A DNA stretch of 64,000 nt. Source: an uncultured SAR86 cluster bacterium (GTDB lineage Bacteria; Pseudomonadota; Gammaproteobacteria; Magnimaribacterales; AG-339-G14). Location: assembly GCA_902625415.1 (NCBI GenBank), contig CACOBG010000007.1, forward strand, positions 6,757 through 70,756, given 5' to 3'. How positions within the stretch are numbered: the first letter of the stretch is position 1; each line of letters opens with the position of its first letter. A model generated the notes under the pieces. That model was not told where the DNA came from. It made no database searches and was given only the letters and a program-made list of their open reading frames with translations. The translations under genes and the position numbers were made by a program. Shown here in pieces: positions 45,900-55,453 of this stretch.

Positions 45900-45996
45900 T
45901 AAGCATTAAACATGAGTAAAGGATATTTTCAAAATTTTTTAAAAATTGATAGATTTAGGATTAAATTTATCAAGAATAGATAATGGAGAAAACTAC

Positions 45997-47031
45997 ATGA
46001 CTAATAAAATCACAGAAGATCCAAGAATAGATCCAAGAATCAAAGAACAATGGAAAGATATAAACTTTCCAGAGGTATCGTTTGAAAGCTCTTCTAGAGA
46101 AGAAATGCTAGCTAAGGTAAATTCTGAAGAGGGACAAGTGGAACTCATGTTGTATGAAGCTTTTTTTAACGATCCTAGGTTAGATGATGCTATCTCATTT
46201 GATGGACTTAAAAACGAAACTATTGAAATCGAGTCGCAGCCAGATGGCAATAAAATAAAACTTTTAAATATTCGTCCCGACAATGAGGATATTCTCCCTT
46301 GTGTTTATTACATACATGGAGGCGGTATGGAGATTGGCTCATGTTTTTATAAGCTATACCAAGCATTTGGCAGATTGATTGCACATCAAAATGTTTCAGT
46401 AATTATGGTGGATTTTAGAAATGCCAGAGTGCCATCATCAGTTCCAGAAGTAGCACCTTTTCCGGCAGGATTGAATGACTGCGTTTCAGGCTTTGATTAC
46501 ATCAAAACCAATGCAAAAAAACTCAATATTGATTCGGAAAGAATTGTTATTTCAGGAGAAAGTGGCGGGGGAAATTTAACTATTGCGACGGGACTGAAAT
46601 TATCTCAAGCCGGTAGATCAAATGAAGTTAAAGGTCTTTATGCTTTATGTCCTTACATCGCTGGTATTTGGCCATTACCTGAAAATCCTTCTTCTACAGA
46701 AAATAATGGCATCATGCTTGATTTACATAATGATCATGGTGCTGTGGTTTATGGTATAGAAGAATGGGAAAAGCGAAATCCTCTCGCTTGGCCAGGTTTT
46801 GCAAAAGAGGAAGATGTAAAGGATCTCCCCAAAACTTTCATTAGCGTTAACGAATGTGACCCCTTGAGAGATGAGGGCATAAATTTTTATAGATTGCTCA
46901 GAAGGGCGAACGTTGAAGCTCAATGCAGGGTGCTATCTGGAACCATTCATGGAACAGATACCATGGTGCTCTCTTGTCCAGAAGTTAGCTTGGAAACGGC
47001 AAGAAGTATTGCTGCCTTTACGGGAGATTAA
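45997..47031 (+). CDS. HSL-family alpha/beta hydrolase (esterase/lipase)
   Basis: HGGG, GESGGG, DPLRDE, H; ATG 45997 with SD GGAG. Confidence 0.9.
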   Translation: MTNKITEDPRIDPRIKEQWKDINFPEVSFESSSREEMLAKVNSEEGQVELMLYEAFFNDPRLDDAISFDGLKNETIEIESQPDGNKIKLLNIRPDNEDILPCVYYIHGGGMEIGSCFYKLYQAFGRLIAHQNVSVIMVDFRNARVPSSVPEVAPFPAGLNDCVSGFDYIKTNAKKLNIDSERIVISGESGGGNLTIATGLKLSQAGRSNEVKGLYALCPYIAGIWPLPENPSSTENNGIMLDLHNDHGAVVYGIEEWEKRNPLAWPGFAKEEDVKDLPKTFISVNECDPLRDEGINFYRLLRRANVEAQCRVLSGTIHGTDTMVLSCPEVSLETARSIAAFTGD

Positions 47032-47610
47032 TTAAAAAATATTAACTAGCCAGATAAGTAGATAGTGCCCTATGAATCCATAGAGGCCGATTGCAATAAT
47101 TGGTTTGTTGGAAAGCCCAATTTCTTTATTAAATAAAATCGCATATACAAAAAGCGGAATATAGCAGAACAGAGAGCTTACCATTCCTGGACTAAAAATA
47201 TTTTGCGCTGTTGATATACCAATATGGAAGCTTGCGTTTGCCATGGTGAGAGCATTATTAAAAAGAAAAAATATTCCAAATATTTTTTCCGATCTTGCTC
47301 TCGATATAACTAATGCTGGTAATAGAATCAGATAAGGCGTTAGGTTTAGTAAAGTAACTTCCAATGGTGAAATATCCATTCCATTTCTATATGCCCAATT
47401 TAAAAAATGGTAGTAATCTCCGAATAAAAGAGGGGATAAAACGTACTCTTCAAACTGATGAGCAGAAAGCGCTAACAAAGGTAGAAGGGCTAGCATATAC
47501 TTGCTCTTAGCTCGATAAAGATAGATACAAATTCCTAAAAAAACGATAAAAGAAATTGTAAAAAAGTTTTGCATCAGCAAAACCAGAGGCGCATCAAAGG
47601 TTGGACTCAT
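47032..47610 (-). CDS. HXXEE-domain membrane protein
   Basis: HQFEEY, HIG, PG; ATG 47610 overlaps the upstream stop (TAATG). Confidence 0.78.
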   Translation of the reverse strand: MSPTFDAPLVLLMQNFFTISFIVFLGICIYLYRAKSKYMLALLPLLALSAHQFEEYVLSPLLFGDYYHFLNWAYRNGMDISPLEVTLLNLTPYLILLPALVISRARSEKIFGIFFLFNNALTMANASFHIGISTAQNIFSPGMVSSLFCYIPLFVYAILFNKEIGLSNKPIIAIGLYGFIGHYLLIWLVNIF

Positions 47611-48557
47611 TAGGCCACAATACCCCAAATTCTTGTCATAAACCAAAAACAACCCATGCCGCCAATTCCATAAGTTACGAGACTTCGAAATACTTTTTTT
47701 AGATCTACTTTATTGAGTAAGAAAATAATTATTCCCACAACAGGAATTATCATAAGCTGACCAATTTCAATTCCTATATTGAAGAACAATAAAGATAGGA
47801 AAAGTTGATCATTGGCTATGCCGATCTCTGATAAAGCTCCAGCAAAACCAAATCCATGCAAGAGACCAAAGCCAAAAGCCATCAACCATGGTCTTTTTAC
47901 ATCAGTCTCTGCTTTAGTTAATTCATATGCCAAATATATGATCGTCAATGCGATCAAGGCTTCAGTACTTGCTGAAGGAAGTTTAAAAATATCCAAGACA
48001 GAAATTGCAAGGGTAATGCTATGTGCCAAAGTAAATGCTGTTATTGTTTTAAACAATGGAACAAATCCTGAAATTAAAAAAATAAGTCCCAAAACAAATA
48101 CGATGTGGTCAATTCCACCGAGCAGGTGTTCTATTCCCAAGTAAAAATAACCAGTTGGATAAACTTGTTTGTCTTCGGGAATGACAATCTCCGGAGCTTT
48201 AAGATTCATCAAACCTTCAAATCTATCTCCATCGAAATGATTTACCGTCACCAGGGCATCGTTAAGAATACTCAGACCACTTACTTGAATCGCTTTACCT
48301 TTTAGAGATTCAGAACATTTCAAATTTATTTTTTCAGAGATGTATTTTCCTTGCCTAAAGGGAAGGTCTTTCTCGATTTCACAAATTTCAGGAAAAGTAA
48401 GCTCTGGAGAGGTACCAAGGTTTTTTATTGGCGTCATCCAAAGGGCTTCGTATTCAAGCTCTACGGTCTCATCTATTAATAAATGGGCAGGATTGAATTC
48501 ATGGGCAAAAAAAGCGGATGAAAAAAAAACAAATAAAGAAAATAAAACTTTAGTCAT
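47610..48557 (-). CDS. HupE/UreJ family protein
   Basis: Signal then AHE; GIEHLLGGIDH, FTLAHSITL, GLLHGFGFA, FNIGIEIGQ. Confidence 0.9.
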   Translation of the reverse strand: MTKVLFSLFVFFSSAFFAHEFNPAHLLIDETVELEYEALWMTPIKNLGTSPELTFPEICEIEKDLPFRQGKYISEKINLKCSESLKGKAIQVSGLSILNDALVTVNHFDGDRFEGLMNLKAPEIVIPEDKQVYPTGYFYLGIEHLLGGIDHIVFVLGLIFLISGFVPLFKTITAFTLAHSITLAISVLDIFKLPSASTEALIALTIIYLAYELTKAETDVKRPWLMAFGFGLLHGFGFAGALSEIGIANDQLFLSLLFFNIGIEIGQLMIIPVVGIIIFLLNKVDLKKVFRSLVTYGIGGMGCFWFMTRIWGIVA

Positions 48558-49356
48558 TAAAGAGGTATTTTGGATTAATGATTACTTGATATTTATCTCT
48601 CAATTCGAACAGGTAGGAATCTAAAGTTTTTTGTTTTTCCTCCAAATAAAAATCAACTTCTACCTTTTCTTTTACTTGATTCAAACTGGGAGTAACGCTT
48701 TCAACTTTATTGAGTAGCTTAACAACATGGAAGCCATACGCTGATTCAACTGGACCAAGCCAAGTATCAAAAATGGGTTCTTCAAAAACTGTACTAAATT
48801 GATTACCAAAATCTCTTTGTATCTCAAATCTGGATTTTTCAACAAAATTTTTCCCTAGCATGAAAGGATCGCTTTTAGGCAAAGTATCCTCATTCTGTTG
48901 AATAGTCTTTAAAGCCTCTTCTGATCTTTGTTTGCCATTTCTTTCCGAAGAAAAGTAAAGATGAGTAAAAGTAAATCTTTCAGGAAAAATATATGACTCT
49001 AAATTTTTCTCAAAAAATTTCTGAAGTTCATCTAGTTTTGGAGGAGCAATAGAAGTTTCTTCTCTTAAAAAAGATATTTTTTGAGCAAGTCTTCTTTTAA
49101 TTATCCGATCTTCTAGGTCAAGATTTAATCTCAAAGCTTCTCGGTATAAAATCTCTTCTTTGATTACGTCATCAATGATGTTTTTGATGTCAGTTCTGGT
49201 TGGCGATCTACCAACCTGGATTTCCCAAGCGTATATCAAGCTTTCAATTTCTTGATCGGAAATAAAAATATTAAGCTCATCCTCATCATAATTGAAAACT
49301 AAGTCAAATATTAAGATGACAACACCTATCCCAAAAAAAGCAAATATTTTCTTCAT
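48550..49356 (-). CDS. PpiC-type peptidyl-prolyl isomerase-like protein, membrane anchored
   Basis: EEILYREA..L.LD, DRIIKRRL, FG..F, GPVESAYGFHVV. Confidence 0.85.
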   Translation of the reverse strand: MKKIFAFFGIGVVILIFDLVFNYDEDELNIFISDQEIESLIYAWEIQVGRSPTRTDIKNIIDDVIKEEILYREALRLNLDLEDRIIKRRLAQKISFLREETSIAPPKLDELQKFFEKNLESYIFPERFTFTHLYFSSERNGKQRSEEALKTIQQNEDTLPKSDPFMLGKNFVEKSRFEIQRDFGNQFSTVFEEPIFDTWLGPVESAYGFHVVKLLNKVESVTPSLNQVKEKVEVDFYLEEKQKTLDSYLFELRDKYQVIINPKYLFND

Positions 49357-49371
49357 TTTATGTATCTGAAA

Positions 49372-50820
49372 CTATTGAAAATTGGGCGGTATTTTAAATC
49401 CACCTCTCAAATCTCGAACGATTTTGGCAACTTCGATACAAGTTTTATCCTCTAAATAAGGACCTGTTATTTGCATGCCAATAGGTAGATTTTTTGAAGA
49501 CATACCTATTGGAACATTCGTGCTTGGCAATCCAGCCGAAACCGCAGGACCAGCCCACAAAGTTGCTCTGAGATATTCATCATCTTTGCCGTTCACAGTG
49601 AGCTTTCTTTCATGAACTGGATTATGGTTATGTTTAAAAGCCGGAGTAATAGAGGTAGGACATAAAATTACATCATATTTTTTAAAGAATTCTCTCCATT
49701 TCTGACGCATATTTTGTCTCATGGCATTTACTACAACCCAGTCTGAGTATTTTAAAACAGATCCTCTAGCAACCTTCGCAAGTTCAGACTTGTCGTTTTG
49801 ATCTAAACCTTCGTTTAACTTAGCGAGTGTTTCAAAAGTTTCTTGCGGGGAGCCAGCAAGCATCAGAGGATTTAAAAGTTGACTATAAATATTATCGATT
49901 TCTTCAAAACTTATTGGTAGGTTCGCTGTTTCAACTTGTGCACCAGCATGTTTTAAATCATCTGCTGTTTCAGTAATTAGATTTGTTATTTCATCATCTA
50001 CCTCTGCATAGGGTTCATCAGGCCAGATTGCGATTTTCAGTTCTTTAATTTTTTTTGTTCTGGCTTTTGGCAATTTAATTTTCCAGGCTGGACTATCTTG
50101 CATTTGAGCTGCAACTAAAACATCCAGTGCAATTTCCAAGTCCTCGGGGGATCTTGCAAGCGGACCCGCTACAGATAATCCGTTACCAGTTAATACTGAA
50201 CCTGGTGGAGGAGGCATATGTCCAACTTCAGAAATGATGTTGTAACTTGGCTTATGGCCAAAAAGACCGCAGAAGTGAGCAGGCACTCTAATGGATCCAC
50301 CTATATCCGAGCCAAGCTCTAGTGGCGTCATACCTGAAGCTAAAGCAGCGGCAGACCCTCCAGAAGAACCGCCTGGAGTTCTTTCTAAATCCCAAGGATT
50401 ATTGGTAGTGCCGTAGATTTTATTAAAGCTTTGCAAATCTGATGAAAGAAACGGCACGTTGGTTTTACCAAAAATAATTGCTCCGGCATCAATCAATCTT
50501 TGAACTGCCTCTGCATTTCGTTTTGGAATGTTGTCTTGCCAGGCAGGGTTTCCACCAGTCGATACAATGCCCTCCACCTCAAAAGCATCTTTTATGGTCA
50601 TGGGCAAGCCATGCAAAGAACCTAGTTTAGATTTAGAAGCAGTTTTTTTGTCTGCCTGTTTTGCTTTTTCTAGTGCTCGTTCAATATCTAATGCAACTAC
50701 TGCATTGATTTTTGGGTTTACAGCTTCAACTTGTTTTAAAAAGGACTCAAGGACCTCTTGAGCAGAAACCTCTTTTTGTTTTATCTTTTTAAGAATCTCA
50801 TGAGCATTTTCAAATATCAT
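49372..50820 (-). CDS. Amidase signature family enzyme
   Basis: GLPMTIKD, GGSSGGSAAA, GSDIGGSIRVPA. Confidence 0.92.
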   Translation of the reverse strand: MIFENAHEILKKIKQKEVSAQEVLESFLKQVEAVNPKINAVVALDIERALEKAKQADKKTASKSKLGSLHGLPMTIKDAFEVEGIVSTGGNPAWQDNIPKRNAEAVQRLIDAGAIIFGKTNVPFLSSDLQSFNKIYGTTNNPWDLERTPGGSSGGSAAALASGMTPLELGSDIGGSIRVPAHFCGLFGHKPSYNIISEVGHMPPPPGSVLTGNGLSVAGPLARSPEDLEIALDVLVAAQMQDSPAWKIKLPKARTKKIKELKIAIWPDEPYAEVDDEITNLITETADDLKHAGAQVETANLPISFEEIDNIYSQLLNPLMLAGSPQETFETLAKLNEGLDQNDKSELAKVARGSVLKYSDWVVVNAMRQNMRQKWREFFKKYDVILCPTSITPAFKHNHNPVHERKLTVNGKDDEYLRATLWAGPAVSAGLPSTNVPIGMSSKNLPIGMQITGPYLEDKTCIEVAKIVRDLRGGFKIPPNFQ

Positions 50821-50846
50821 TATGCTTAGTAATTCTCTGTTAAATA

Positions 50847-52955
50847 CTAGTTAGTATTTAAAGGTTCTTCAGTTTCTTGAACGCTGTCCATTATCGATCT
50901 GATTGTAAAAACGCCACCTGGATTTGGAACATTTGGAATGTACCAGATTGGGCTTGACCAAGCACGTTCTTGAAAAGTTTTCGGTAAGTCTTCTCTGGGT
51001 TTCAATCCAGCTTTTATCGCATCCCAAGTAGTCCATGGGCAACTGGGGTTTTCCAAAACCCTCACATAGTAAAAAGCTTTTTCATTTTTATTGAAATCAG
51101 GATCTGTCCAAACAGTTTTAAGTTCAGCCGATCCCACATCATTCGATATTTCACAAGTTTCAGTATTTACCGTAGCGCCATTATCTGGACATCTATTTGT
51201 TATTGGATTTACTTTAGCTCCGTTGGAACAAACTACGTCATAAACTGTTTCTTTTGGCTCAGCATCAAATTGATTGATAGTGCCTTTAATAATTTGAACT
51301 CTTTGTAGCGGCGCTCCATTTTTTGCTCTTTGTGCCCAAACGAAAAAGTTAGGAATATTGCTACCTTTGGAAACTAAGTCTGAACCCATGGGAACACCGT
51401 TGCGATAAGCCTCACTGATGACGTTTTCACTATTAAGGTCTAATTCATTCAAACGATAGCCACCAAAGAAACGAACTGAAATCCTATTTCCACTAGTAGC
51501 AAAAGTCTCTTTTCTTCGCAAGGCGCTAAAAATTGATTCTCGCGTATTTTCTTCAGCCCAAACTGCAGCCAAACCCGATGCACCCCATTGAGTGAATCCG
51601 GACTCTAAATAATTTCCTTCTTGGCCTTCGTAAATTTCAATTGGCAAACCCGTATCACCAAAATTACCCTGACGTCCTAAAATCGTTTGTTGATAATCAG
51701 TTACAGGCACTGAACCTCTTCCTTCTGGAGTAGCATCAATGATTCCAATTTTTGACCAAAAATCAGATTCGTCATATGAAGAAGCCCCAGTATGCGTATC
51801 GGACGAGCCAATCAAACCAAATTTATAAGGATTTCCTCGATCTTCCCACTCAAGAACCATTCCTCTAAAAAAAGCATCTCTTACATAACCACCAGCAGGC
51901 AAAGAGTAAGTTCTAGGAAAGCTTCCTACTCTAGAATTCATGATACCAAAATCTGCCCATTCATCATTAGGTGACAAAAGAGGGTGGGTATCGCTTGTGC
52001 CTTTAACTTGAGTCATTTCTACAATAGGTTCATTCCTCATTCGTAATGCGGAATAAGTTTTATCAATAGGTGACCCATCAAATTGTTCCACTTCAAACAT
52101 CTGTCCATTTGACCCATTTGAATTATGTGGCATAGCAATAGAATCTATGCCTTTATCCCTTAGCTTATCCATCCATGCCCACAAATCCTCTGGATTAATA
52201 GAATCGATTCTAGTCCAAGGTCTTTCAGGCGCTTTAGAACCTTCAAAAATTACATTTCTATGTAAATTACCATTTTCTACATCCGTAGAAGTTGTGAATT
52301 CATAACCAATGAAGGTTGTAAAATTCCCAGGATCATTGTGTTCGTTCGCAGCTCTTGCAACATCTGCCCAAGATGACTTGTGAGTTTCATCATCAAAAGA
52401 GCGTATCGCCAATGAAATATGATTTGATAGGAAAGCCTGAATAAATTTTGGATGATACCAAGGATAAGGATTTGCAATTGCTTCAACGGCACCTCTGAAG
52501 CTCCCTAATCGAAATGCAGAAGACTCTAAAGTTTGGTTCTCAGGAGCATTTATATTGTGATAAATCTCTGCGCCTGGAAGAGTGGAGGCATAGGTTGAGG
52601 TATCAGCCCAAGCTTGGATCATACCAAGAAAAAAACCATGATCAGTAACTGCATAAAAATCCAATGGCTCTCTAAGTTTCATATCGAAGCCCAAAGCATG
52701 CTTTATAGTGTCACCTTTTGCATATCTGTAAGCATCATCAGGAGAGGCAGTTGTGCCAAATACATATGCATCGAATGAATATCTCGTGTGAACATGAAGA
52801 TCACCAAAGTAGGCATTTCTTAGTTCGTTAAAGTCTTTGCTGGGAGCAGGCGCAGGTTTCCCTTCAATAGAAAAATCCACTACTTCTAATGAAGTATCTG
52901 TACATCCAATAAAAATTAATGCCGTAAAAATTAAAGCGCTGATATTTTTTTTCAT
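50847..52955 (-). CDS. DUF3604 lipoprotein (PHP-like metallohydrolase)
   Basis: Lipobox FIGC; YFGDLHVHT, AVTDH, GYEFT, LHRNVIF, PHNSN, GSSDTH, QERAWSSPIW. Confidence 0.88.
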   Translation of the reverse strand: MKKNISALIFTALIFIGCTDTSLEVVDFSIEGKPAPAPSKDFNELRNAYFGDLHVHTRYSFDAYVFGTTASPDDAYRYAKGDTIKHALGFDMKLREPLDFYAVTDHGFFLGMIQAWADTSTYASTLPGAEIYHNINAPENQTLESSAFRLGSFRGAVEAIANPYPWYHPKFIQAFLSNHISLAIRSFDDETHKSSWADVARAANEHNDPGNFTTFIGYEFTTSTDVENGNLHRNVIFEGSKAPERPWTRIDSINPEDLWAWMDKLRDKGIDSIAMPHNSNGSNGQMFEVEQFDGSPIDKTYSALRMRNEPIVEMTQVKGTSDTHPLLSPNDEWADFGIMNSRVGSFPRTYSLPAGGYVRDAFFRGMVLEWEDRGNPYKFGLIGSSDTHTGASSYDESDFWSKIGIIDATPEGRGSVPVTDYQQTILGRQGNFGDTGLPIEIYEGQEGNYLESGFTQWGASGLAAVWAEENTRESIFSALRRKETFATSGNRISVRFFGGYRLNELDLNSENVISEAYRNGVPMGSDLVSKGSNIPNFFVWAQRAKNGAPLQRVQIIKGTINQFDAEPKETVYDVVCSNGAKVNPITNRCPDNGATVNTETCEISNDVGSAELKTVWTDPDFNKNEKAFYYVRVLENPSCPWTTWDAIKAGLKPREDLPKTFQERAWSSPIWYIPNVPNPGGVFTIRSIMDSVQETEEPLNTN

Positions 52956-53001
52956 AATCTCCCCTAGTGATATTTATATTAATGCAATCAAAGTAAAACT
53001 T

Positions 53002-54060
53002 CTAATTTAAATCTGAAAGGTTTATTTCTTCCGTACCAACAGGTAAAACAACGAAAGTTCCATCTCTCGACAAGGTCCAGTCCGTTCTTATCTCATCAAC
53101 GCCTCTTACAAAAACGTTCTCCATGATTCCATTTCGCGGAGCTGGGGTAAGGTGATAAAAGATTAGGTGTCCTACTTTTGCCATGTTTGCTAGTTTCGCT
53201 GCTTCTATAGGCGTCATATGATAAGTCTTTATGTCTTCAAGTACCTTTACTAAGGGCTGATTGGAATCTCTTTCTAAAATAGCTTTTTGCATTATATTAA
53301 TGATGTGATTTGCTTGAGCTTCAGCAATCAAAACATCGGCATTTTCAGAATTAACAGCAATGTTTTCATCGTAAGACGTGTCTCCGGTTATGACCAACGA
53401 TCTTCCTTTGTAGTCAAAACGATAACCAAGGGCAGGCTCAATTGGTTCGTGGGTCACTTTAAAGGCTGTAATTTTCAAACCGTTTTTGTTGTAAATGATA
53501 GGATTGTTTAGATCGACAATGGTTGTATCAAAGCCGACAGACTTAATTGGCGCAAGCGCCTCACCATGATGTTCATTTCTGAACCCATAGTCTAATTTAT
53601 ATGCCATTTCGAAGCCTGCGGTTACGATATCCGTGCCTTCAGGCCCATATACAGAAAGTGCTTTTGGACGACCTGGTAACCAAGTTGCCAAATGAAGATC
53701 TGCTAAATCTGAAATATGGTCAGAGTGGAGGTGAGTGAATAGCACCGCTTTAATTTTATTTGTTGGGACGCTGTATTTTCCTAAATTAACATTTGCTCCA
53801 TCTCCTATATCAACTATAAAAATATCCTCCCCTGCTTTTACAGCAACACAGGTTTGTGCTCTTCCAGGCGATGGTAGCGGAGATCTTGATCCACAAATGA
53901 GAGCGCTCAACGCGTCTTCTTCAGGGAAAGGACTGTCAGCTGTAGCTAAATTTGAAACAGCTGTTTTTATTACCAAATCTTGTACAAATGGAACTCTTAA
54001 AGAAACAAAAACAATTAAGAAGAGAATAAAAATGACGCCTAAAATTTTCCAAATTCTCAT
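53002..54060 (-). CDS. MBL-fold hydrolase of the RNase Z/arylsulfatase (AtsA-like) group, N-terminally anchored
   Basis: THLHSDH, VTHEP, TGDT, YH, YHLTP. Confidence 0.85.
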   Translation of the reverse strand: MRIWKILGVIFILFLIVFVSLRVPFVQDLVIKTAVSNLATADSPFPEEDALSALICGSRSPLPSPGRAQTCVAVKAGEDIFIVDIGDGANVNLGKYSVPTNKIKAVLFTHLHSDHISDLADLHLATWLPGRPKALSVYGPEGTDIVTAGFEMAYKLDYGFRNEHHGEALAPIKSVGFDTTIVDLNNPIIYNKNGLKITAFKVTHEPIEPALGYRFDYKGRSLVITGDTSYDENIAVNSENADVLIAEAQANHIINIMQKAILERDSNQPLVKVLEDIKTYHMTPIEAAKLANMAKVGHLIFYHLTPAPRNGIMENVFVRGVDEIRTDWTLSRDGTFVVLPVGTEEINLSDLN

Positions 54061-54098
54061 AAATCCTCCATAATTTGGAATAGTAAATATACTAAAAT

Positions 54099-54137
54099 AA
54101 TCTAACTATTGACAGTATGCATGTCAAAATATACCTT
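54099..54137. promoter_or_regulatory. Palindromic bidirectional promoter/operator TTGACA-N7-TGTCAA
   Basis: Perfect -35 on both strands (54109-14 and 54127-22), each 17 bp from a TAnnnT hexamer. Confidence 0.6.
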
Positions 54138-54154
54138 ATAAATTTAATAGAAAT

Positions 54155-55453
54155 ATGACAAAAATAAATGACCCATTAACTCTTCCTTGTGGACAAGTTA
54201 TCAAAAATAGAGTTTGTAAAGCCGCTATGACAGAAAGAATTGCTCTGGGCAATAACTTTACTAACGAAAAGCATATAGAACTTTATAAAATGTGGGGTGC
54301 AGGCGACATCGGTATCTTACTTACAGGCAACGTCCAAGTGCACCGAGATAATTTAGAAGGTCCAGCTAATGTTGCAATTGAGGCGGATACTTATAAAGAA
54401 CAAATGCCGATGTTAAAAAATTGGGCTGAAGCTGCAACTCTAGAAGGCAGTAGACTGTGGATGCAAATTTCACATGCCGGAAGACAAACTCCAGGTGAGA
54501 TCAATATGAGCCCCATGTCACCCTCCGACGTACAATTGAAAATTCCTGGCAGGAAATATGGTAAACCAATTCCTATGACCGAGGAAGATATTCAAGATGT
54601 CATCAATCGATTTGTGTTTACGGCAAAAATTGCTCGAGAGTCAGGATTTGATGGCATTCAGCTGCATTCCGCTCATGGCTATCTACTCTCTCAATTTTTA
54701 TCTCCTGATATCAATCAAAGAACTGATGCTTGGGGCGGATCATTGGAAAATCGAGCGAGAATTCATCTGGAAATCATCAAAAAATGCAGAGAGGAAGTGG
54801 GTGAAGATTTTGCAATTTCAATAAAAATGAACTCGGCAGATTTTCAAAAAGGGGGCTTTTCTCCAGAGGACTCCATTCTAGTAGCAAAATTATTTAGCGA
54901 TTCAGGGATAGACAATATTGAAATTTCCGGTGGAACTTATGAGCAGCCAAGATTACTGGGTTTGGATAAGGTGAGCATCAATCCAAAGAGGAGCGAAAAC
55001 AGAAAAGAAAGCACCATTGCTCGAGAGGCATATTTCCTTTCTTATGCAGAAGAAATAGCAAAAGTTGTAAATATTCCTTTGATGGTAACTGGAGGATTTC
55101 GGACTAAAGATGGTATGGAAGCAGCATTAGCAGACGGAGCTTGTGAAATAGTTGGAGTTGGCAGACCCCTTTGTGCAAACCCTTATGCGATTAAGGAACT
55201 ATTGGCCGGACAGATTGATGAATTACCAAAATACGAAAAAACTTTGTCGATTGGCCCTTGGTGGCTCTCACCGACAAGCCCTTTCAGGTTAATTCAGGCA
55301 ATTAATGCTTTTAGTGCCCAAGCTTGGTTTTACCAACAAATTAAAAAAATGGGTAAAGGGTTAATGCCAGACTTAAATCTCAAACCCTGGAAAGCATTTA
55401 GAGAGGATGCTAAGGCTGATCAAGAGGCTATAAAAGAATATCAAAATTTTTAA
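54155..55453 (+). CDS. NADH:flavin oxidoreductase (Old Yellow Enzyme family)
   Basis: KAAMTE, QISHAGRQ, HSAHGYLLSQFLSP, EISGGTYE. Confidence 0.9.
   Translation: MTKINDPLTLPCGQVIKNRVCKAAMTERIALGNNFTNEKHIELYKMWGAGDIGILLTGNVQVHRDNLEGPANVAIEADTYKEQMPMLKNWAEAATLEGSRLWMQISHAGRQTPGEINMSPMSPSDVQLKIPGRKYGKPIPMTEEDIQDVINRFVFTAKIARESGFDGIQLHSAHGYLLSQFLSPDINQRTDAWGGSLENRARIHLEIIKKCREEVGEDFAISIKMNSADFQKGGFSPEDSILVAKLFSDSGIDNIEISGGTYEQPRLLGLDKVSINPKRSENRKESTIAREAYFLSYAEEIAKVVNIPLMVTGGFRTKDGMEAALADGACEIVGVGRPLCANPYAIKELLAGQIDELPKYEKTLSIGPWWLSPTSPFRLIQAINAFSAQAWFYQQIKKMGKGLMPDLNLKPWKAFREDAKADQEAIKEYQNF

Follow-up and report, generated by a model that had tools for sequence, protein, structure and literature searches.

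A conserved three-gene unit encoding a DUF3604 protein, a parvulin-like protein and a HupE/UreJ-2 membrane protein in SAR86 and other bacteria

The acquisition of metals by Sec-exported enzymes in the periplasm is poorly understood. The 64-kb stretch of SAR86 DNA analysed here (hereafter the window) carries a cluster of six co-oriented genes on the minus strand (main locus, 47032–54060), including those for a DUF3604 protein, a parvulin-like protein and a HupE/UreJ-2 membrane protein (hereafter HupE-2). The original prediction, made from the sequence of this stretch, interpreted the cluster as encoding a metallohydrolase, exported and served by a foldase and a metal supplier of its own, extended by further genes for the stepwise cleavage of P-, S- or amide-linked compounds. 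Which of these six genes belong together, and what might their products do? Comparison with other loci and genomes shows that the conserved unit consists only of the genes for DUF3604, the parvulin-like protein and HupE-2 (hereafter the trio, the last two being the helper pair), which form a genetic module. The other three genes encode a metallo-β-lactamase (MBL)-fold hydrolase, an amidase-signature enzyme and an HXXEE-family membrane protein, and adjoin the trio only in the genus of the window (hereafter g1). The genes of the cluster are as follows.

53002–54060, minus strand: MBL-fold hydrolase, 352 amino acids (aa); Lactamase_B_2 (PF12706), 72 bits
50847–52955, minus strand: DUF3604 protein, 702 aa; PF12228, 720 bits
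49372–50820, minus strand: amidase-signature enzyme, 482 aa; PF01425, 361 bits
48550–49356, minus strand: parvulin-like protein, 268 aa; Rotamase_2 (PF13145), 44.4 bits
47610–48557, minus strand: HupE/UreJ-2 membrane protein, 315 aa; PF13795, 148 bits
47032–47610 (ATG start) or 47032–47652 (TTG start), minus strand: HXXEE-family membrane protein; PF13787, 35.2 bits

The open reading frames (ORFs) bear out the packing first described for this cluster, with six co-oriented genes, gaps of no more than 46 bp and two overlaps, and all six family labels were upheld by Pfam scores above the cut-offs (20.4 bits for DUF3604, 24.5 for HupE_UreJ_2, 27 for Rotamase_2 and 25 for HXXEE). The intergenic gaps are 46 nt (MBL/DUF3604), 26 nt (DUF3604/amidase) and 15 nt (amidase/parvulin-like), and the stop of the parvulin-like gene and the start of HupE-2 overlap by 8 nt. 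The HXXEE gene is more likely to start at the ATG at 47610 (192 aa) than at the TTG at 47652 (206 aa), because the HupE-2 stop and this ATG share the sequence TAATG, giving a 1-nt overlap. The genome from which the window is taken is 1.22 Mb in size, 90.6% complete and has a G+C content of ~37%; the closest public loci are from SAR86 single-cell genomes and metagenome-assembled genomes (MAGs), with 92–99% protein identity.

Conservation of the trio

The trio was recognised as the conserved unit because three independent samples (79 DUF3604 loci, 61 SAR86 genomes and 251 Pseudomonadota genomes) agreed. The first sample was fetched with the DUF3604 protein as the query, and is biased towards the best query matches. 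Within it, the parvulin-like and HupE-2 genes always occurred together and beside DUF3604 (23 of 23 loci), and the trio was seen in SAR86 lineages at 55–62% identity, in other Gammaproteobacteria and in one Gemmatimonadota MAG (locus L035).

The second sample consisted of 61 SAR86 genomes from four families and 14 genera. A same-strand DUF3604 gene lay upstream of 40 of the 48 genes encoding a HupE-2 of ~320 aa, usually at a distance of ~1.3 kb, which corresponds to the size of the parvulin-like gene. This distance rises to 2.8 kb in the window's genus, where the inserted amidase gene accounts for it, and to ~6 kb in one SAR86 genus, through the insertion of genes for an acyl-CoA dehydrogenase and a fused carboxylase. 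DUF3604 was present in 53 of the 61 genomes, and HupE-2 was also absent from all eight genomes without DUF3604. Locus L087 (3144–13870; SAR86 genus g10) carries two tandem DUF3604 genes, followed by genes for an acyl-CoA dehydrogenase and a 1124-aa fused biotin carboxylase/carboxyltransferase, and then the helper pair; an alpha/beta hydrolase gene lies after the trio region of this locus.

In the third, even sample of 251 Pseudomonadota genomes, 16 genomes contained DUF3604 and 54 contained HupE-2, with 15 having both (Fisher p = 2e-10), and HupE-2 was located within 5 kb of 18 of the 30 DUF3604 genes. We fetched 67 of the HupE-2 loci from these genomes: 51 had neither a parvulin-like gene nor DUF3604, and 16 had a parvulin-like gene beside HupE-2. 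A full DUF3604 gene adjoined 14 of these 16 pairs, and a DUF3604 remnant one more. The partnered HupE-2 proteins constitute a distinct subfamily, matching a profile derived from the trio with E ≤ 1e-67, versus 1e-54 or weaker for the others, and every parvulin-like gene beside HupE-2 (16/16) accompanies a member of this subfamily. At loci L133 and L137, the gene order is altered and the adjacency of the trio retained. The recurrence of a DUF3604–peptidyl-prolyl isomerase (PPIase)–HupE trio, which had initially been put forward together with a proposal for neighbourhood statistics, was thus borne out by the counts in both SAR86 and Pseudomonadota.

The tree estimated for 95 DUF3604 sequences placed the window protein in a clade spanning SAR86 (SH-aLRT 97), all members of which have the trio, and possession of the trio requires at least six changes on this tree. 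For the 136 genes around DUF3604 at 66 non-redundant loci, a Pfam tally, noisy due to crude ORF calls in high-GC loci, identified no recurrent partner besides the helper pair and no Pho-regulon genes.

Accessory genes and transcription of the cluster

The three accessory genes differ from the trio in their distribution. They were found beside it in only one (g1) of the 14 SAR86 genera sampled and, among the 79 DUF3604 loci, only in those with at least 92% identity; none of these loci outside g1 carried them. As the accessory genes join the trio in this genus only, the six-gene order is a genus-specific feature, and provides no independent evidence for a shared pathway.

The MBL protein begins with a membrane anchor or signal and contains the motif HLHSDH. 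Its closest sequences in the PDB are PNGM-1, which is RNase Z-like, and the MBL-type arylsulfatase 8GYG (E ~2e-19), and it scored below every NCBIfam equivalog cut-off (145 versus 333 for GntH; 98–128 versus 252–363 for RNase Z models). Orthologues were present in 58 of the 61 SAR86 genomes, including those lacking DUF3604 and HupE-2, and were not linked to the trio outside g1. The MBL gene is, therefore, close to being a SAR86 core gene. The amidase gene, which sits between the DUF3604 and parvulin-like genes in the window's genus, encodes a protein scoring 552.6 bits against NCBIfam NF004816 (equivalog cut-off 503), with no signal peptide in its sequence. Its orthologues (61–74% identity) in four other SAR86 genera share neither position nor neighbours with it. 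The amidase gene has an in-frame stop, with its neighbours intact, in at least one g1 member (L011:12106–13581 and G007:C2:280533–281978, two records that may be from one genome). The HXXEE gene, the product of which contains the motif HQFEE, was found in 15 of 17 g1 genomes, always directly after HupE-2, and was absent from the other 13 SAR86 genera sampled.

The best promoter-like match of the region was as follows.

54099–54127, minus strand: sigma-70-like promoter match TTGACA-17-TAGATT, 5′ of the MBL gene (consensus match, 10 of 12 positions)

This site scored highest of the promoter-like sites in 46500–54600, as a consensus match only. It overlaps a palindrome, TTGACA-N7-TGTCAA (54110–54128), which the MBL gene shares with a divergent gene of the OYE family across their 94-nt spacer. 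This palindrome could supply both directions with a −35 box, or constitute a regulator site. The scan revealed fewer promoter-like sites in the region than in shuffled sequence and no convincing internal terminator within the six genes, which weakly favours a single transcription unit. The MBL, amidase and HXXEE genes are probably co-transcribed with the trio here, yet lie outside the conserved module. Downstream, the stop of a convergent Abhydrolase_3 esterase gene (45946–47031, plus strand) abuts that of HXXEE (47032, minus strand), leaving no space for a terminator between the two genes.

These observations bear on the possibility that all six genes serve one catabolic pathway, in which the MBL, DUF3604 and amidase proteins would cleave successive P-, S- or amide-linked groups of a single organic substrate and the PPIase, HupE-2 and HXXEE proteins would ensure maturation or supply metal. 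Such a pathway would be consistent with the tight co-oriented packing behind one promoter-like site, with the resemblance of the MBL to an MBL-type arylsulfatase and with the preservation of gene order throughout the genus, including its most divergent member (~65% identity for MBL and HXXEE), but it is difficult to reconcile with the restriction of this arrangement to a single genus. The three accessory genes each raise a further objection: the amidase lacks a signal peptide, whereas the trio works in the envelope, and its gene is found alone in varied contexts in other genera and is interrupted in at least one member of g1; the near-core MBL gene occurs in genomes with no DUF3604 or HupE-2 and is separate from the trio elsewhere; and HXXEE is confined to g1. 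We therefore consider a six-gene pathway very improbable, and the extension of the trio to a stepwise cleavage pathway including the amidase, MBL and HXXEE proteins, as first envisaged, is not supported.

Export, fold and conserved residues of the trio proteins

The DUF3604 protein of the window matches positions 2–591 of the 591 positions of the PF12228 profile. Its N-terminus consists of a signal peptide followed by the lipobox IFIGC, with the lipid-modifiable Cys18, in agreement with its initial description as a lipoprotein. In most of the 90 DUF3604 N-termini inspected, a Cys of the lipobox type comes after a Sec signal (40 according to a strict pattern, and more by eye), and none had a convincing twin-arginine translocation (Tat) motif. 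DUF3604 is thus predicted to be a Sec-exported, lipid-anchored lipoprotein. Tat export of a DUF3604 metallated in the cytoplasm was considered and rejected, given these Sec/lipobox signals.

An alignment of 64 diverse DUF3604 sequences revealed nine invariant putative metal ligands: H54, H56, D62, H106, E219, H232, H277, D386 and H388. The His-rich, PHP-like motifs noted at the outset are all present and invariant in this alignment, HVHT corresponding to H54/H56, TDH to D105/H106, HRN to H232, PHN to H277 and DTH to D386/H388. Four cysteine residues of the C-terminal beta-sandwich (C576, C589, C601 and C639) were also invariant. In the AlphaFold2 model (predicted local distance difference test score, pLDDT, 91; predicted template modelling score, pTM, 0.91), the nine putative ligands are located at the ends of successive beta-strands or immediately after them. 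No match for DUF3604 was obtained by sequence and profile searches of the PDB, whereas a Foldseek search of the PDB with the model identified a single significant match, the two-domain PHP-like phosphoesterase 3E38 (E 3.8e-5, prob 1.0); 7UG9, the PHP domain of RNase AM, was the next entry of the PHP type. The TM-scores for 3E38 (0.48 for the target and 0.26 for the query, with ~10% identity) are modest because DUF3604 has large insertions. The model supports, with high confidence, a PHP-type fold for DUF3604.

The PHP phosphodiesterases No-PDE and Sb-PDE have a trinuclear Zn site with the ligands H61, H63, D68, H93, E135, H142, H203, D260 and H262 (PMC11656708). The invariant residues of DUF3604 match the nine alpha, beta and gamma metal ligands of these enzymes in order and chemistry. 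To our knowledge, all the PHP enzymes characterised to date hydrolyse phosphoesters and, for this reason, the most likely activity of DUF3604, by analogy, is that of a periplasmic phosphomono- or phosphodiesterase. The papers found to mention DUF3604 treat it as uncharacterised, with one of them predicting a metal site in a TIM-barrel-class model. The family is sizeable (960 clusters at 50% identity, E ≤ 1e-30), and two to three copies are present in a streamlined SAR86 genome of 1.2 Mb.

DUF3604 genes were also observed in other settings. The window's genome contains a 666-aa paralogue (L005:7981–9981; G000 contig C5) with a cytochrome P450 and a 949-aa TonB-dependent receptor as neighbours, and a very divergent 745-aa paralogue (L006:7289–9526; G000 contig C3) flanked by two MFS_2 transporters and a rhomboid protease, neither having helpers. 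In MAGs of Azotimanducaceae/Pseudomonadales (L037, L039 and L030), tandem arrays of at least four DUF3604 paralogues from different clades of the tree occur with no helper pair within the 20-kb locus. In alphaproteobacterial MAGs (Rhodobiaceae; L064, L071, L077 and L082), a helper-less DUF3604 gene lies between genes for arginase-family and pyridoxal phosphate (PLP) decarboxylase-like proteins on one side and a convergent ZnuBC-like ABC-3 permease and ATPase on the other, a neighbourhood that may represent a different link to Zn/Mn supply.

The parvulin-like protein has an N-terminal membrane anchor, a helical segment strongly conserved between the 20 orthologues aligned (EEILYREALRLxLDxxDxIIKRRLAQK) and a divergent parvulin domain, with the Rotamase_2 match covering residues 109–230. 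Its profile matches HP0175, SurA, Cbf2/PEB4 and PrsA with E ~1e-7. Residues S205, G208 and H210 of the parvulin domain are invariant, the first His (H133) is replaced by Gln in four of the 20 orthologues, and the profile alignment revealed no counterpart of the GGDLG-type loop of HP0175. We read this protein as a putative membrane-tethered chaperone of the SurA/PrsA type, and predict that both it and HupE-2 face the periplasm from the inner membrane.

The PF13795 match of HupE-2 spans residues 137–283; the score for the classical HupE/UreJ family (PF04955) was 21.7 bits, below the cut-off of 23. The N-terminal AHE to which attention was originally drawn is present after the signal peptide: the sequence H19-E20-x-x-P23 directly follows a hydrophobic signal ending in FFA, and H19, E20 and P23 are invariant in the 18 orthologues. 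Cleavage of the signal peptide is predicted to leave H19 as the first mature residue. The periplasmic domain that follows (~110 residues) has two invariant cysteine residues, C59 and C81, and the membrane helices have invariant residues H144, D150, H151, H179, E199, H234, N260, E264 and Q267. The AlphaFold2 model (pLDDT 81) has beta-strands at 24–125, forming a beta-sandwich, and then a helical bundle. Sequence and profile searches of the PDB with HupE-2 returned no match, including to the anglerase structure 9GCE at E values of up to 10, and the Foldseek search with the model gave no significant match (9GCE at E 0.38, prob 0.41, TM-score 0.18/0.28). Searches of the whole 1.22-Mb, 90.6%-complete genome detected neither a urease alpha subunit nor the large subunit of a NiFe hydrogenase, extending to the entire assembly the absence previously noted for the vicinity of the locus. 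The HupE-like protein does not, therefore, serve either enzyme as an accessory, and a classical Ni-supply role for it was rejected. A second HupE_UreJ_2 paralogue, of ~398 aa, is present in most SAR86 relatives (e.g. G010:C2:498333–498914), never near DUF3604 (0/32); no copy of it was detected in the genome of the window, which is 90% complete.

Function of the trio and comparison with known systems

We favour, with modest confidence, a reading in which the trio encodes a periplasmic PHP phosphoesterase together with its own foldase and a metal-handling permease. The enzyme, foldase and supplier proposed in the original prediction fit the anatomy of the locus, as the products are a Sec lipoprotein with a full PHP metal-site signature, a membrane-anchored SurA/PrsA-like protein and a permease beginning with His; the pathway built around them with the MBL, amidase and HXXEE proteins is the part that is not supported. 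DUF3604 would cross the membrane unfolded, and its metals would therefore have to be acquired beyond the cytoplasm. The SurA/PrsA-like protein, anchored in the membrane, would hold or fold the newly exported DUF3604, and possibly also fold the periplasmic domain of the permease. HupE-2, with a His at its mature N-terminus on a periplasmic beta-sandwich, would capture a divalent metal or move it across the inner membrane, and this metal (candidates Zn, Mn, Co and Ni) would be loaded into DUF3604, which would then hydrolyse a phosphomono- or phosphodiester in the periplasm. More tentatively, the trio may be a dedicated periplasmic metallation machine, in which a membrane-anchored SurA-like holdase keeps apo-DUF3604 loadable and HupE-2, through its N-terminal His/Asp "hook", supplies the three-metal PHP site with scarce metal, either captured in the periplasm or exported from the cytoplasm; we consider this specific version less likely than not.

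Several observations weigh against a phosphoesterase supplied by its own helpers. Two DUF3604 paralogues of the same genome have no helpers, which suggests that not every DUF3604 requires them in cis; the pair may act in trans on other paralogues. In the Pseudomonadota sample, 12 of the 30 DUF3604 genes had no helper nearby and, conversely, the SAR86 genus g3 has kept the helper pair with no DUF3604 on the same contig. The isomerase activity of the parvulin-like protein is doubtful, because the usual catalytic loop is missing and the first His is a Gln in some orthologues. The periplasmic domain of HupE-2 was not assigned as Ang-1, having no significant sequence, profile or fold similarity to 9GCE. 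Trio-type proteins from other Pseudomonadota (L138, L131, L147, L129, L150 and L146) have an Asp rather than a His after the signal peptide (D-E/N-x-R-P), and the conserved feature is, therefore, [H/D]-E-x-x-P rather than a strict N-terminal His. The neighbours of DUF3604 give no clue to its substrate, as no family was counted at more than 3–4 of 66–70 loci in the flanking-gene tally. Finally, the general view of HupE/UreJ proteins is that they bring their substrates into the cytoplasm, a direction of transport that would not feed a periplasmic enzyme directly.

The last of these points would be accommodated if the trio served to acquire a nutrient or metal rather than to mature an enzyme: DUF3604 would free a metal from an organic complex, or release a small product, for import by HupE-2, and the parvulin-like protein would serve mainly the permease. 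The model proposed for anglerases is likewise one of capture followed by uptake (PMC12537917). The parvulin-like gene is more tightly tied to HupE-2 than to DUF3604, always lying adjacent to it and overlapping it by 8 nt in the window; the pair survives without an adjacent DUF3604 in genus g3 and in genome G241, and a single helper pair is present per genome alongside several DUF3604 paralogues. A general importer would, however, need no DUF3604, and nearly all the genomes with a trio-type permease have this protein, with 15 of the 16 pairs adjoining it or its remnant. The His, Asp and Glu residues of the helices look like a pathway for metal rather than for an organic solute, and we know of no PHP enzyme that frees metals from complexes. 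We consider processing followed by import to be unlikely.

The genes of the trio might also be held together by co-regulation only, through a shared signal such as metal scarcity, with DUF3604 as a metal-sparing or alternative-metal isoenzyme and no physical hand-over of metal. Metal-starvation regulons commonly place alternative enzymes beside transporters, and the DUF3604 gene of one alphaproteobacterial lineage adjoins the ZnuBC-like ABC-3 transporter rather than a helper pair. This adjacency is, however, convergent and limited to a single lineage, no metal-regulator box was identified, and the strict pairing at subfamily level across phyla, together with the start–stop overlaps, implies a closer functional tie. 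Co-regulation without any other connection is thus improbable in our view.

If the preferred reading of the trio as an enzyme with its own foldase and permease is correct, these three genes offer a compact genetic handle on the loading of metals in the periplasm. If the trio is in fact a metallation machine, it would be the first system described to be devoted to metallating a Sec-exported hydrolase, and DUF3604 would gain both a reaction class and a maturation route. Given the size of the DUF3604 family, its two to three copies in a streamlined genome and its presence in 53 of the 61 SAR86 genomes, the reaction that it catalyses is probably of consequence for the surface-ocean turnover of dissolved organic matter, or of phosphorus. 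The finding also narrows the focus from the six-gene cluster to the trio, of which the locus studied here is one instance with genus-specific additions.

The module was not found described in the literature, in which we found no paper linking DUF3604, a parvulin and HupE/UreJ; its components are members of known superfamilies, and there is precedent for an enzyme encoded with its own maturation factors. The best fold match in the PDB, 3E38 (BVU_3505), resembles DUF3604 in having a PHP barrel followed by a second domain, and Sb-PDE and No-PDE have the same nine-ligand set, in the same order and with the same residue types (PMC11656708). DUF3604 is roughly double the length of these three proteins and differs from them further in its large insertions, its lipoprotein signal and the four invariant cysteine residues of its C-terminal part, and no dedicated helper genes have been reported for Sb-PDE, unlike DUF3604 in the trio.

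The membrane domain of classical HupE/UreJ Ni permeases is a distant relative and likewise has conserved His and Asp residues, whereas the HupE-2 of the trio scores below the PF04955 cut-off and is encoded in a genome with no urease or NiFe hydrogenase. Closer in architecture are the anglerases, periplasmic domains with an N-terminal His fused to HupE/UreJ-2, which have been found experimentally to bind Cu and Ni and have been proposed to feed the permease (PMC12537917). Ang-1 and Ang-2 (RbAng-1a, 9GCE) share with HupE-2 the PF13795 family, a signal peptide, an N-terminal His, a periplasmic beta-sandwich and a permease. By contrast to Ang-1, the periplasmic domain of HupE-2 is ~110 aa rather than ~170 aa long, has no significant match to 9GCE and begins with Asp in some relatives. 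The paper on anglerases names neither a parvulin-like nor a DUF3604 partner (PMC12537917).

The parvulin-like protein of the trio combines a helical chaperone segment with a parvulin domain, as do SurA, PrsA, PEB4/Cbf2, HP0175 and PpiD. PpiD has an N-terminal membrane anchor, like the trio protein. The latter is much smaller than SurA and PpiD, has no conserved catalytic loop and is tied to one permease subfamily, rather than to general housekeeping.

The logic of the trio has a parallel in the E. coli operon ycdX-ycdY(-ycdZ), which encodes a PHP Zn phosphatase together with a chaperone required for its Zn-dependent maturation (PMC4464133). YcdX is cytoplasmic, and the TorD/DmsD-family protein YcdY and the DUF1097 protein YcdZ are not homologous to the helpers of the trio, so the analogy is one of logic only: in both cases, a PHP metal-dependent phosphatase, in the case of DUF3604 a predicted one, is encoded with its own chaperone and an inner-membrane protein.

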